Shown here: piece by piece, positions 24,661-61,757 of the stretch
How the letters are laid out: every line of letters starts with the position of its first letter
How positions within the stretch are numbered: position 1 is the stretch's first letter
Position numbers and translations under genes: made by a program
Virus record (IMG/VR): IMGVR_UViG_3300031134_000639
Reading direction: 5' to 3' (one strand)
Length of the DNA: 64,000 nt
Origin: a virus
Lineage: Duplodnaviria; Heunggongvirae; Uroviricota; Caudoviricetes
The notes under the pieces: generated by a model
Databases searched by the model: none
What the model saw: only the letters and a program-made list of their open reading frames with translations
Told to the model about the DNA's origin: nothing

Positions 24661-24859
24661 TCTACTTGAAAATAAAGGATAAAACAAATGTTCAACTACT
24701 TACTCTTAATCTCTAACAGTCTAATTCAGTAAACCGAACAGTTTTGTATTGTTTTCTTAGAGTAAGCTGTGCATTCTATTTGGTTTACCCCCGAATGGGT
24801 GTTTGACGATAGACTGTTACCGATACATGTTACAACAAAACTTCAGAAAGGGAGTAACC

Positions 24860-25072
24860 ATGTCCGAATCAAACTGGAAAGCAGTGTCAACTTCAGAGGC
24901 AACATTATCTGGAGAGACATACAGTAAGATAGCGGAGCAAATCAAAGAGGTGAACACAGGTGAGATTTGGACTATCCAGTTCCATGACAGCTACGACACC
25001 TGGACTGATTTGGAGAAAATGGAAGTCACTGAGGATGGTAATTTGAAGGCAATTTCAAAAAATGCGGTATAA
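24860..25072 (+). CDS. Hypothetical small protein
   Basis: ORF 24803..25072 trimmed to MSESNWK, which follows an AAAGGGAG RBS. Followed by a terminator. Confidence 0.6.
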   Translation: MSESNWKAVSTSEATLSGETYSKIAEQIKEVNTGEIWTIQFHDSYDTWTDLEKMEVTEDGNLKAISKNAV

Positions 25073-25089
25073 TTGATATAGAAAGTTCC

Positions 25090-25121
25090 AGCTGCCCCAC
25101 GGAGTTATTCGTGGGGCAGCT
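25090..25121 (+). terminator. Intrinsic terminator hairpin
   Basis: AGCTGCCCCACG / CGTGGGGCAGCT after 24860..25072. Confidence 0.65.
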
Positions 25122-25178
25122 TCTATTTATACACCAAATCCGATATGAATACAGACAAACCAACCAAAGGAATCCCTT

Positions 25179-25832
25179 TTGAAAACTAAAATCGTACGCA
25201 CAGCCTCAGCTATGGTATTAGCAGGCGGCTTACTTGTCAGCTTAGCAGCCTGCACCACAGACAACAACTCTGATGCACCCACCTCAGCTGTGTCCGGGTC
25301 AGCAGGAACCTTAGGTAACAAGACTACAGCACCAACTGTCAGTCCAGAAGAGGAAGCAGCAGCAGTTTCCGACACTTACGAAGGATTCCTGAACGCACTG
25401 TTCACAATTGATGGCACAGAAGCCTCAGCAGTGTTCAAAGACCTAGAGAATGTCTCTACAAGTTCATCAGATGCTGACAAGCAGAAGACAATTGATGAAC
25501 TCTATGCTCTTTCACCAGAAGCTTTCGGCAGTTTTGACACTGAAGGCTTAAGTCTTGATGAAAAAGGTGCCATCTACTCTGGCTTCGCATACATTGGAGC
25601 CTACGCAGCTACCAGTGCAGCAGAGTACTCTTTTGAGCTTCCAGATTCAGCTGTTACGGTAACAGATAACACTGCAACTGTTGACCCCCTTCAGCTTGTC
25701 GTGACTGTAGATGGTCAGCCGACTGACACAGGAGCGACTGCTCAGGCTGACTTGACTTCCTTTGTGAAAAAGGATGGCAAGTGGTTGATTGTTGTTCCAG
25801 ATGAAGCACTACAGGAAGCTGGAGTCCAGTAA
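25179..25832 (+). CDS. Lipoprotein
   Basis: ORF track (TTG start after AAAGGAA). Signal peptide MKTKIVRTASAMVLAGGLLVSLAAC with lipobox LAAC. Confidence 0.75.
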   Translation: MKTKIVRTASAMVLAGGLLVSLAACTTDNNSDAPTSAVSGSAGTLGNKTTAPTVSPEEEAAAVSDTYEGFLNALFTIDGTEASAVFKDLENVSTSSSDADKQKTIDELYALSPEAFGSFDTEGLSLDEKGAIYSGFAYIGAYAATSAAEYSFELPDSAVTVTDNTATVDPLQLVVTVDGQPTDTGATAQADLTSFVKKDGKWLIVVPDEALQEAGVQ

Positions 25833-25855
25833 GTCAACAGACAGTAATTAGTTAA

Positions 25856-25891
25856 CTGAGGGGAAGCATTTTGTACAGTGCTTCCCCTCAG
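25856..25891 (+). terminator. Intrinsic terminator hairpin
   Basis: CTGAGGGGAAGCA / TGCTTCCCCTCAG after the lipoprotein gene, immediately before the CCGATAGTAAT motif. Confidence 0.65.
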
Positions 25892-58890: not shown

Positions 58891-58920
58891 GCTTACTTAA
58901 GACAAGAAAGGAACCCCGTA

Positions 58921-59784
58921 ATGTATACAGAAAATGCTATCCAGTACTTCACCACCGAACATTACAGTGTTCCCTACCTCACTAAAGCTGGGCAAGGTAG
59001 AAACGTGAACGATAGAAAAGCCAGCTACTCTGACGCTGAGCTTGAGGCAGCCCACAAAGAGTACGTCAGGCTTCTTGATGCTCTTAAGGAAATTGGGTGG
59101 AGTAACACTGTAAAGCTTGTGCAGCCTGAGCAGAAGCAGCATGCTCGTATCGCAGAGTTCCAGTTCTCTGAGTACAAGCAGTTCCTTACGGAGCTAGCTC
59201 AGGCTGCGCTGACATACGGTTTCCCTGATAAAAGAGCACAGACTGAGAATCGGGCTTACCACTACTACACGAACAGTAACTCACGGTACCAGGTAGAAGT
59301 AGCAAGTAACATTGCCCCATTCAATTTCCACCTTCAGTCAGGTCGTGTAAGCAACATGGCATTCACTATTCCTGCGGTTGGAGCAGCCTGGAGTCCCGCC
59401 GCCAGGACAAAGGCTGACAATCCTAAGCCCGCCAGTGACTGCACTGTAGACGAGTTCATTGAAGGTATCCCCACTTTCAACAAAACCCTCAGCCAGCAGC
59501 TAGAACAGCAGGGGTACGAACCCACGACCTACAACATCCTTGCCCTCTTCCTCGGACTTTTCGCCGCGAAAAGAGACCTAGCAAACGTGGGGCACACTGA
59601 CCTTGTTCCTCAGGAGAAGACTGCACCAAAAGAATACATGGAGTTCATCACCAACGGAATCCCAATCAGCAAAGCCCTCCTCTATGTTTCACCTTTGTTC
59701 CCCAAAAAAAACATGCCCACACTGGAGACCGTCCAGGGTACAGAAGGTATGCCATTTGAATGGTTCATGAAGCTTCACTACTGA
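58921..59784 (+). CDS. Family-E paralog 2 (unknown function)
   Basis: ORF track. TEHYSVPYLTK ... EYMEFITNGIPISKALLYVSPL ... MPFEWFMKL. Confidence 0.7.
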   Translation: MYTENAIQYFTTEHYSVPYLTKAGQGRNVNDRKASYSDAELEAAHKEYVRLLDALKEIGWSNTVKLVQPEQKQHARIAEFQFSEYKQFLTELAQAALTYGFPDKRAQTENRAYHYYTNSNSRYQVEVASNIAPFNFHLQSGRVSNMAFTIPAVGAAWSPAARTKADNPKPASDCTVDEFIEGIPTFNKTLSQQLEQQGYEPTTYNILALFLGLFAAKRDLANVGHTDLVPQEKTAPKEYMEFITNGIPISKALLYVSPLFPKKNMPTLETVQGTEGMPFEWFMKLHY

Positions 59785-59806
59785 TACTAGACCAAAGGAA
59801 ACTAAA

Positions 59807-60667
59807 ATGGGACACGACTACACCCTAGAAAGCATGCACACAACACCGGCATACACGGTGCCGCATGCTCGCACCCTAAAGCCGGAGGAGCTAACCCAGA
59901 ATCCACTGCCGAAAGAGTTTTTCTACTCCGCTAAGCAGCTGGACACTGTATACAGCCAGTATCTGGAGCTTGTGAAAATGCTGGAAGCATCAGAGTGGGC
60001 AGGCTACGTTAAGCTTGAACAAAAAGGTAGAATGATGAACATTGTGTTCCCCGCCTATCAGAAGCTAGCTGAAGAGTTGAACAAGTCACAGCCGACCCTG
60101 GAAAGTAAAACTGTATTCGGTTACACTGCGAAGAAGAACTACCAAATTTCAAGCAGCATTCTGGGAAGCTTCCACCTGCAAAAAGGTCACCTTGTGAACA
60201 TTGCTCTCCAGGCAAACCCTTTCATTGCAGAGCACATGGATGAGAATGCAACCCGAAAAGGGATCACGACACTAGAGGGCTACAAGAAGTTCATTACCAA
60301 GTCAACACGCACCATCAAGAAGGAACTCCTTCACCGACACATCCCCGTTAATGGATACACAATCACAACACTGCTTCAAGCTAAGCTTGGATACAGCATA
60401 GGAACCATCCAGGGACGGCTTGAAGAAGGCAGAAGCCCGATTGGAAGATTGATTATCGTGAAGAACAGAAAAGACAAGGTCACTGAAAAAGTCTACGATC
60501 ATCTGAAAGCTCAGACGCCAACAGAGAAAGTCCTCAGATACTGTTCAGTCTTGTACTCCCACACTCATGCGGTAGGCCCCGAGTACATAGACATTGTAGA
60601 CGATGTGCCGCTAGATTGGTACCTTAAAATGGCTAAGCCAGAAGGCGATGCCATAGCAATGTACTAA
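59807..60667 (+). CDS. Family-E paralog 3, divergent (unknown function)
   Basis: ORF track. TPAYTVPHARTL ... GSFHLQKG ... VPLDWYLKM. Confidence 0.65.
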   Translation: MGHDYTLESMHTTPAYTVPHARTLKPEELTQNPLPKEFFYSAKQLDTVYSQYLELVKMLEASEWAGYVKLEQKGRMMNIVFPAYQKLAEELNKSQPTLESKTVFGYTAKKNYQISSSILGSFHLQKGHLVNIALQANPFIAEHMDENATRKGITTLEGYKKFITKSTRTIKKELLHRHIPVNGYTITTLLQAKLGYSIGTIQGRLEEGRSPIGRLIIVKNRKDKVTEKVYDHLKAQTPTEKVLRYCSVLYSHTHAVGPEYIDIVDDVPLDWYLKMAKPEGDAIAMY

Positions 60668-61453
60668 TCAGCCAATAACACGTTGTTTAGCGGCAGCAAG
60701 CTCAGCTTCAGTAAGAATACCGCTTTTAAACAAACGGTCTAACCTTTCAAGCTGACCTGCAATATCATCAGACGCCCCACCAGTATTAGCTGACTGGGGT
60801 TTCTGTGTTTGTGGGACAGAGAAAAGAGGACCCTGAGAGGCAGGTTCCTTAGGAAGAGTCTCGCTAGCAGGTTGAGGCTGAGCCGGGAAGCTACCAGTCT
60901 GAGGAAAACGAGGTGGAACGAACCCTGAACTACCAGGAGCGTTACCGAACTGGTTCTGCTGCTGAGGAGCGAACCCAGAGAACCCCTGAGAAGCCGCAGG
61001 TGGCTGCTGGAAGCCCTGAGATGGCTGTGGACCTCCACCGTTACCACCCCACCCTGTACCACGCTTACCGGCGCGCTCACGGATTAAGCCAACAAGTCTT
61101 TTACCTGTGTTAGCAGGCACCTTAGTGATAGTAGCCTGGCTGCCATCGCTGAACAGCACAATGTCTCCAAACAGAATGCGAGATTGCCATTCAACACTGG
61201 AGATACTATAGAAGGGGAAATCCTGAGTGGTCTTCTTAAACCAACCGTCTTTCAGGAAGAACACGCGCTCATTAGTCAAAACGATGACGCCCCGTCCGTT
61301 GCTGTACTTGCCAGAGCAGATAGCTTCAACTTGCTCCCCACCGTGCAGGTAAGTAACCAGAAGCCTAAGCTCGCGGTTGCTACCAAAAGTAATCATCATG
61401 CGCTTCTTCGCAGCAGCGATATCTTCTCTCAGAGGAGCCATAACAACAATCAT
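60668..61453 (-). CDS. Bacterial PH-domain protein with Gln/Pro/Gly-rich linker and C-terminal SHOCT domain
   Basis: ORF track. GVIVLTNERVFFLKDGWFKK..ISSVEW fits a PH/YokE-like domain. The low-complexity stretch is PQPSQGFQQPPAASQGFSGFAPQQQNQF. LERLDRLFKSGILTEAELAAAKQRVIG is SHOCT-like. Confidence 0.65.
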   Translation of the reverse strand: MIVVMAPLREDIAAAKKRMMITFGSNRELRLLVTYLHGGEQVEAICSGKYSNGRGVIVLTNERVFFLKDGWFKKTTQDFPFYSISSVEWQSRILFGDIVLFSDGSQATITKVPANTGKRLVGLIRERAGKRGTGWGGNGGGPQPSQGFQQPPAASQGFSGFAPQQQNQFGNAPGSSGFVPPRFPQTGSFPAQPQPASETLPKEPASQGPLFSVPQTQKPQSANTGGASDDIAGQLERLDRLFKSGILTEAELAAAKQRVIG

Positions 61454-61746
61454 CTTTCAACTAGAAATTATTCTTATACTCTATCGGAGAACACTGAGAA
61501 CATGAAAAACCCAGGTCAGCAAGCAACCTGAGTTCACTCAAGTCTGCCGCCGAAAAAAAGATCAAACTTTTTTGGAAAAAATTTCCACCGAAACCCAGCA
61601 ACAGCGTGTACCCCGAAAACCAAAAACACTACTAAACGCCCCAAAAACCGTAAAAAACACACCAAAATGCCTCCAAAATGCAATAAAATAGCAAAAACTG
61701 CTCTATACACGCAATAAAACGCTATACCCAATAAACTAAAACGCTG

Positions 61747-61757
61747 CCGATAGTAAT
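61747..61757 (+). promoter_or_regulatory. CCGATAGTAAT motif (exact), 124 nt before the nrdH start
   Basis: Exact 11-mer inside the A/C-rich leader. Confidence 0.5.

Follow-up and report, generated by a model that had tools for sequence, protein, structure and literature searches.

A CCGATA-type motif as the probable core of a second promoter class, lacking a -35 element, in a clade of very large and probably viral elements

An 11-mer and its shorter core

We analyzed a 64,000-nucleotide (nt) stretch of DNA (the window) from IMG/VR record IMGVR_UViG_3300031134_000639, which is part of contigs of 624,949 and 663,129 bp. It encodes thyX, nrdHIE, an NAD-dependent ligase, radA, the CCA-adding enzyme (cca), ADP-ribosyltransferases (ARTs), and dense small open reading frames (ORFs), and from this gene content it is plausible, and assumed here, that the element is probably a phage or another virus. 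Our subject is a short motif that stands upstream of about twenty of its gene units and that an earlier note on this DNA had reported as five exact copies of the 11-mer CCGATAGTAAT, all on the plus strand. We confirmed all five over the whole window, where 0.02 copies are expected and none of 100 dinucleotide-preserving shuffles gave five. Measured from the first C of the motif, as are all distances below unless noted otherwise, the copy at 25898 to 25908 lies 41 nt before the ATG of cca (25939 to 27411) and 4 nt after a strong hairpin; the copy at 35964 to 35974 lies 40 nt before ART-1 (36004) and is preceded by a hairpin of -44 kcal/mol (35912 to 35957); and those at 39740 to 39750 and 45154 to 45164 lie 40 nt before ART-5 (39780) and 37 nt before ART-11 (45191), respectively. 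The fifth copy (61747 to 61757) heads the nrdH-nrdI-nrdE unit at a distance of 136 nt from the true nrdH start, 61883. The gap between the end of the 11-mer and the ATG is thus 30 nt for cca, 29 nt for both ART-1 and ART-5, and 26 nt for ART-11, within the 26 to 30 nt claimed earlier for these four genes; the start given for ART-4 had to be corrected from GTG 38790 to ATG 38808 (MCRPK..., MCRPKELGGRRCP...).

We considered whether the five exact copies might be remnants of duplication and rejected this, as flanking similarity is confined to ART-5 and ART-11, over about 10 nt downstream. A search of IMG/VR for exact AAACCGATAGTAAT was uninformative, returning more than 120 unrelated single matches, the chance level for a 14-mer.

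The functional unit is shorter than the 11-mer. When up to two mismatches were allowed, 13 sites were found in the window against 9.5 expected, which is no enrichment; the signal therefore consists of a core of 6 to 7 nt together with its position and orientation. This core reads C-Y-G-W-T-A-G, with G3, T5, and A6 nearly invariant. In an unsupervised test of hexamers in co-oriented upstream regions against the whole sequence, CCGATA ranked first in the window between 24 and 64 kb, where 13 of its 20 occurrences (both strands) fell within 2,490 nt of upstream sequence (p = 1.8e-13). Upstream of genes in the first 24 kb, CCGATA was without enrichment. The same test placed CCGATA or CGTTAG/TAGATA among the top hexamers of three related elements (L134, L136, and L138; the relatives are described below).

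Expectation-maximisation, run on 154 regions upstream of genes in the window and in six relatives, found the motif in 42 to 49% of them, and the seeds CCGATA and TATAAT led to one and the same motif. The matrix, C (.81), C/T (.64/.25), G (.96), A/T (.78/.20), T (.98), A (.95), G (.58), n, n, A/T (.64/.32), T (.53), has the consensus C-Y-G-W-T-A-G-n-n-W-T and carries about 10 bits; over 54 aligned sites, positions 8 to 12 are approximately 80% A+T. Sixteen sites in the window score at least 11 bits against the position weight matrix. Our script labelled 13 of them intergenic, and two of the three labelled as coding (53683 and 61747) lie only within doubtful ORFs, so that by our reading 15 of 16 are intergenic, compared with an intergenic share of 10.5% for the sequence overall.

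Absence of a -35 element

Upstream of the 54 aligned sites, none of positions -40 to -1 reaches 0.2 bits, and hence there is no conserved -35 element; neither TAAA nor TTGA at -35 spacing was above control offsets at these sites. In a consensus scan (TTGACA, a 16- to 18-nt spacer, and TATAAT with A2 and T6), no listed site scored as a sigma-70 promoter; the scan picked up only a weak candidate for the motif, CTGATA at 59781, which it took as a -35 hexamer. Canonical sigma-70 promoters were found elsewhere in the window, for example at 9983, 12432, 29836, and 34806. The hairpins before cca (-31 kcal/mol) and ART-1 end 4 to 9 nt before the motif, where a -35 element would lie.

Two spacing classes and their start codons

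The spacing between the first C and the start codon falls into two classes, of 13 to 18 nt and of 26 to 50 nt, the latter with a Shine-Dalgarno sequence. All 18 sites of the short class (seven genomes; mode, 16 nt) precede ATG, with a mean Shine-Dalgarno duplex energy of -0.4 kcal/mol, compared with -4.8 kcal/mol for the 30 sites of the long class (p = 5.6e-6). Among 213 called genes, 23 have the motif at 13 to 19 nt; all 23 begin with ATG, and 16 of them are without a Shine-Dalgarno sequence (Fisher p = 3e-4). The combination of short spacing, invariable ATG, and a usually missing Shine-Dalgarno sequence suggests that transcription starts approximately 13 to 18 nt downstream of the first C, yielding leaderless or short-leader mRNAs. 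Such a start, 2 to 7 nt past the 11-mer, would be roughly compatible with the value of about 7 nt past the motif predicted earlier.

We also considered contig ends as possible transcript starts, since two contigs (L148 and L151) begin 47 nt before cca, 8 nt upstream of the motif. Nothing about this shared end points to transcript assembly, and we attribute it to a break of the assembly close to the hairpin rather than to a transcript 5' end.

Conservation in related elements

Through homologs of the cca protein we found seven more lineages, on contigs of 0.13 to 0.88 Mb (up to 1.0 Mb among the relatives in the homolog table), with G+C contents of 36 to 63% and cca identities of 38 to 60%. CYGATA(G/T) stands upstream of cca in all eight lineages, 32 to 65 nt before the ATG, and in an alignment of the first seven, CYGATA is the sole invariant block before the start codon, the surrounding spacer having diverged. 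Orthologs of the A24_N-like gene carry CCGATAA 15 to 17 nt from the ATG in 3 of 3 lineages, and orthologs of the 250-amino-acid (aa) "MC" protein keep the motif in 3 of 3, at 16, 30, and 44 nt. That the motif stays with its gene while its distance to the ATG varies favors a start signal in DNA over one that acts in translation. What is kept at the NT5C and PARP orthologs is a sigma-70-like promoter (TTGACA/TATAAT-like), so that both classes are conserved across the clade.

Within the cca leader, just downstream of the predicted transcription start, GGGACATAGAAAAG (25916 to 25927) is kept in five of the seven aligned lineages (L134, L136, L138, L142, and the window). The rest of the spacer around it is not conserved, and GGGACATAGAAAAG may be a gene-specific element of the 5' untranslated region (5'-UTR).

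Searches beyond the clade gave little. IMG/VR holds no close relative of the element, and the cca relatives found there (33 to 45% identity) belong to unrelated elements with no motif upstream of cca. The element and its relatives are absent from INPHARED, where megablast and tblastn gave nothing close, 10 unknown ORFs had no match in PHROGs, and a scan of GTDB genomes found only distant, partial cca genes (at most 50% identity) and so gave no clue to the host.

A probable second promoter class

It is likely, in our view, that the motif forms the core of a second class of promoters, which do without a -35 and are used across a clade of very large, probably viral elements. The earlier note had proposed such a class for this window, distinct from the TTGACA-17-TATAAT promoters, and the proposal is supported by upstream information below 0.2 bits, the misses of the sigma-70 scan, conservation at cca in 8 of 8 lineages, and the link between spacing and Shine-Dalgarno strength. 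The sequence analysis shows the motif, its enrichment and orientation, its spacing classes with their Shine-Dalgarno correlation, and its conservation; the promoter function, the start site, and the nature of the reader are deduced from these. The motif would lie in the -10 or extended -10 region, at several sites directly behind a strong hairpin that fills the place of a -35. Where an ATG coincides with the predicted start some 13 to 18 nt past the first C, the mRNA would be leaderless or nearly so and would need no Shine-Dalgarno sequence; where the motif lies farther from the ATG, a leader of about 20 to 30 nt would carry one. The reader would be an RNA polymerase holoenzyme with a sigma-family factor that recognizes a composite extended -10/-10 element, as sigma-28 does, and this factor could be encoded by the element, or the holoenzyme could be a host enzyme diverted from -35 recognition.

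Several points weigh against this interpretation. Gene starts were taken from a crude longest-ORF caller, and some spacings may consequently be wrong. For the short class, the lack of Shine-Dalgarno sequences is in part a matter of geometry, the motif taking up the space that they would occupy. A few good matches are intragenic, for example one of 12.2 bits at 5679 on the minus strand. Finally, genes for sigma factors, gp55-like proteins, and RNA polymerase subunits were sought without success in the window, in approximately 8.5 kb beyond its left end, or in approximately 20 kb around cca in the seven relatives; this search (Pfam on 40 window ORFs and N-terminal fragments, plus precomputed Pfam tables for the relatives) took in about 0.2 Mb of clade sequence and covered less than 15% of each genome.

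Alternative explanations

The alternative that survives best, though we judge it unlikely, is that the host primary sigma reads these sites as extended -10 promoters once recognition of the -35 has been abolished by a product of the element. There are analogies for such a change in the switch of Thermus phage P23-45 to promoters without a -35 and in the appropriation of sigma by AsiA of T4. The motif shares the G-n-T-A skeleton of TGnTATAAT, with G3, T5, and A6 matching G-14, T-12, and A-11 (G at 96 to 99% and TA at 95 to 99%), and it shares the pyrimidine before the G (position 2 is C or T), the A+T-rich downstream positions, and a dispensable -35. The TATAAT-seeded run of expectation-maximisation reached the motif with TA aligned to TA, a start at the A of the ATG would, at the modal leaderless spacing of 16 nt, place A6 at -11, and use of the host primary sigma is shown by the canonical TTGACA-17-TATAAT class in this genome. 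The details fit less well. The hexamer reads TAGnnW, and T-7, the most conserved base of the sigma-70 -10 element, is not conserved, the equivalent position being A in 64% and T in 32%; C is preferred over T at the equivalent of -15 (C at 53 to 64%, T at 25 to 42%). Moreover, the sigma-70 scanner left the sites unscored, a T in the sixth place of the hexamer being obligatory for it, and no AsiA- or gp39-like gene was identified among proteins of which most here are without annotation.

It is distinctly improbable, in our assessment, that the sites are ordinary host sigma-28 (FliA/SigD/WhiG-type) promoters and that the element borrows the flagellar sigma of its host. Sigma-28 promoters have been described as TAAAGTTT-N11-GCCGATAA (PMC7286023), as TAAA-N15-CCGATAT (PMC3720852), and in Bdellovibrio as TTAAG-N16-CCGATA (PMC3627812); in the open complex, GCCGATAA occupies positions -15 to -8, with A-11 flipped and with neither conservation nor flipping at -7 (PMC12784957). 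With its identical CCGATA core, the sigma-28 signal (TAAA-N15-GCCGATAA) is the closest known, and all our listed sites have CCGATA or CYGWTA. Both follow a composite extended -10/-10 logic, neither has a conserved base at -7 (T-7), and the geometries are compatible, the first C of the sigma-28 CCGATA being at -14 and leaderless ATGs here lying 13 to 18 nt (mode, 16) from the first C. The specificity of sigma-28 is conserved across phyla and could explain a motif shared at 36 to 63% G+C; in the literature searched, we found CCGATA only in sigma-28 contexts and no phage promoter of the CCGATA type.

The sigma-28 explanation nevertheless fits poorly where the rest of that promoter should be. TAAA at a spacer of 14 to 17 nt occurs at 4 of the 54 sites, compared with 2 to 5 at control offsets, positions -40 to -1 hold no information, and hairpins fill the -35 region at several sites. 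Within the element itself, a G before the first C, corresponding to G-15, is present at only 11 of 54 sites; the base after CCGATA, where sigma-28 has A-8, is G at 28 of 54 and A at 9 of 54 (G, 58% in the matrix); and position 4, the equivalent of A-11, is T in about 20% of sites (the CGTTAGA forms). The genes served are not motility genes, and the clade sequence examined, about 0.2 Mb, contains no sigma-28 gene.

That the motif is the operator of a DNA-binding repressor or activator, and not a core promoter, is very improbable. An operator could be short, conserved, and upstream of many genes, as the motif is, and some copies are partial palindromes (CCGATATC at 49890, 54037, and 53962), but most are not, and neither strict co-orientation with the downstream gene in two narrow distance classes nor the link between short spacing, ATG, and a missing Shine-Dalgarno sequence is expected of an operator; in addition, no alternative sigma-70-like promoter is detectable at the motif-bearing units. 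Slightly less probable still is an action in RNA, as a processing site or 5'-UTR element in longer transcripts: every copy reads in the sense direction of the gene that follows, and hairpins precede several of them, as they might precede a signal for processing between cistrons, but a search of the whole window against Rfam gave no match, there is no conserved structure around the motif, its distance to the start codon varies between orthologs, cleavage at short-class sites would leave a leader of 13 to 18 nt without a Shine-Dalgarno sequence, and the ART genes inside the tandem array are without the motif.

Relation to phage late promoters and the reading factor

The earlier note had likened the motif to T4 late promoters. 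Late promoters of the T4 type (TATAAATA, read with gp55, gp33, and the sliding clamp) have a single short element near -10 and no -35. As a functional analogy the comparison stands, since the motif likewise lacks a -35 and marks a viral gene class apart from the sigma-70-type promoters of the same genome; as a sequence comparison it does not, since the motif is unrelated, TATAAATA is absent, no gp55 or gp33 homolog is present in the sequence examined, and the closest sequences are those of sigma-28 and extended -10 promoters. Late promoters of phage SPO1 (gp33/34) have CGTTAGA near -35 and GATATT near -10. The strings CGTTAGA and GATAT both occur in the motif variant CCGTTAGATAT, but as one overlapping block at -10 and not as two blocks about 18 bp apart, and we regard this likeness as coincidence. 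Given that sigma-28 fails on the -35, G-15, and A-8, and extended -10 on T-7 and the preference for C over T, the motif is not to be filed as a member of the sigma-28, extended -10, or T4 late families.

For the factor that reads the motif, the absence of a -35 makes an element-encoded or element-redirected holoenzyme somewhat more likely than an unaltered host factor. The description of these promoters as phage-specific is unproven, however, as no sigma or RNA polymerase gene is present in the sequence examined and the core is that of the conserved host sigma-28 -10 element. Retention of the motif across very different G+C contents points either to an element-encoded factor or to a host factor of universally conserved specificity, such as sigma-28. 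A more specific proposal, which we hold only tentatively, is that the clade carries its own specificity factor, either a polymerase or a sigma-28-like sigma in which region 4 has been lost or is bypassed. Such a factor would read CCGATAG as a stand-alone element in hosts of 36% to 63% G+C and would drive a large program, about a third of it leaderless messages, that includes the expanded ARTs and the CCA-adding enzyme with their shared N-terminal Cys/His knuckle.

To our knowledge, nothing is known of the organization of transcription in elements of this size (contigs up to 0.88 Mb) that are known from metagenomes only. A conserved signal of about 10 bits can be used there to delimit transcription units and to sort the genes by promoter class, of which there are at least two, and it helps to correct start codons, as for ART-4, nrdH, and the leaderless genes. 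It also indicates the type of factor to seek, one with sigma-28-like -10 recognition and no -35. For a bacterial virus, so many leaderless genes are unusual, and this may give a hint of the host. Should the element prove to encode the factor itself, factor and motif would form a compact orthogonal pair of promoter and sigma.

Genes served by the motif

The motif appears to mark a general promoter class and not the ART/cca/nrd regulon proposed earlier, for it also precedes radA, genes for NlpC/P60, A24_N-like, and bPH/SHOCT proteins, two MPNPYHD genes, and unknown ORFs. All variants listed in the earlier note are where it placed them, including CCGATAGATAT, ACGTTAGACAT, CTGATAGACAT, CCGTTAGACAT, and the CCGATA forms at 24820, 30183, 46858, 49890, and 54037. 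Its observation that every unit opening with a Cys-knuckle protein carries the motif likewise holds for all units between 24 and 62 kb that open with an "MC..." protein, namely cca, the gene at 34009, and ART-1, -4, -5, -11, and -12.

On the plus strand, CCGATACATGT (24820 to 24830) lies 40 nt before the ATG at 24860 of a 70-aa ORF, with a Shine-Dalgarno sequence present, and CCGATATGAAT (25140 to 25150) lies 39 nt before the ORF at 25179 to 25832. The NlpC/P60 gene at 29110 is preceded at 66 nt by CCGATAGATTA (29044 to 29054), ART-4 (ATG 38808) at 43 nt by CCGATAGATAT (38765 to 38775), and radA (46896) at 38 nt by CCGATATACAT (46858 to 46868). Leaderless spacing is found for CCGATAATTGC (30183 to 30193), 17 nt before the ATG at 30200 of the A24_N-like gene, an arrangement kept in the L134 and L140 orthologs; for ACGTTAGACAT (33993 to 34003), 16 nt before the ATG at 34009 of the 247-aa "MC" protein; and for CTGATAGACAT (48308 to 48318), 16 nt before the ATG at 48324 of ART-12, the last two without a Shine-Dalgarno sequence. 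It is found as well for CCGATATCACT (49890 to 49900), 14 nt before the ATG at 49904, and CCGATATCAAA (54037 to 54047), 15 nt before the ATG at 54052. Minus-strand sites are two copies of CCGTTAGACAT, at 52669 to 52679 and 53673 to 53683, each 43 nt before an MPNPYHD gene (51716 to 52636 and 52753 to 53640, respectively), and CCGATAGAGTA (61477 to 61487), 34 nt before the bPH/SHOCT gene at 60668 to 61453.

Two TCGTTAG variants on the minus strand lie outside the interval covered by the earlier note and are possible members of the leaderless class: TCGTTAGTTAT (19692 to 19702), 16 nt before the ATG of an ART gene without a Shine-Dalgarno sequence (18778 to 19686), and a site at 3382 to 3392, 14 nt before the ATG of the ORF at 2776 to 3378. 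The function of CCGATATAGTT on the plus strand (34757 to 34767) is uncertain; the downstream ADP-ribosylglycohydrolase gene (start at 34871) has its own TTGACA-17-TATTAT promoter.

Neighboring genes and further observations

A shared N-terminal module, M-C-x(3-8)-(G)RRC-x2-H...ARNARRR, is found in 12 ART paralogs, the CCA-adding enzyme, and the 247-aa ORF; the genes that bear it start at 25939, 34009, 36004 to 46054 (eleven tandem ART genes), and 48324. The cca orthologs in all seven relatives likewise begin with ATG-TG(C/T). The M-C-x(3-8)-(G)RRC-x2-H module has no match in Pfam or the PDB. A zinc knuckle with a role in targeting, packaging, or nucleic-acid binding is one possibility, and the ARTs and the CCA-adding enzyme may be packaged or injected effectors.

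Beside the ART array, in the segment from 34806 to 35902, the ADP-ribosylglycohydrolase gene has a sigma-70-type promoter of its own, TTGACA-17-TATTAT with TG, so that the eraser of ADP-ribosylation and its writers apparently belong to different promoter classes. In the region from 1 to 21000 and in L144, both strands carry paralogous ORFs of about 200 aa, approximately 25 to 30 in number, for which Pfam and PHROGs gave no match. Many have canonical TTGACA-17-TATAAT promoters in divergent pairs, and the CCGATA motif is almost wholly missing from this region.

The two MPNPYHD paralogs (51716 to 53683, minus strand) have a near-identical promoter and leader, CCGTTAGACAT ... AAAAGGACAACTT-ATG, and are separated by a bidirectional hairpin with a perfect 20-bp stem (52697 to 52740). 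Upstream of nrdH, a 430-nt spacer (61454 to 61882) is A/C rich and G poor, with strong AT skew and repeated CAATAAAACGCT-like strings; it has no Rfam match and contains the CCGATAGTAAT copy that precedes nrdH.

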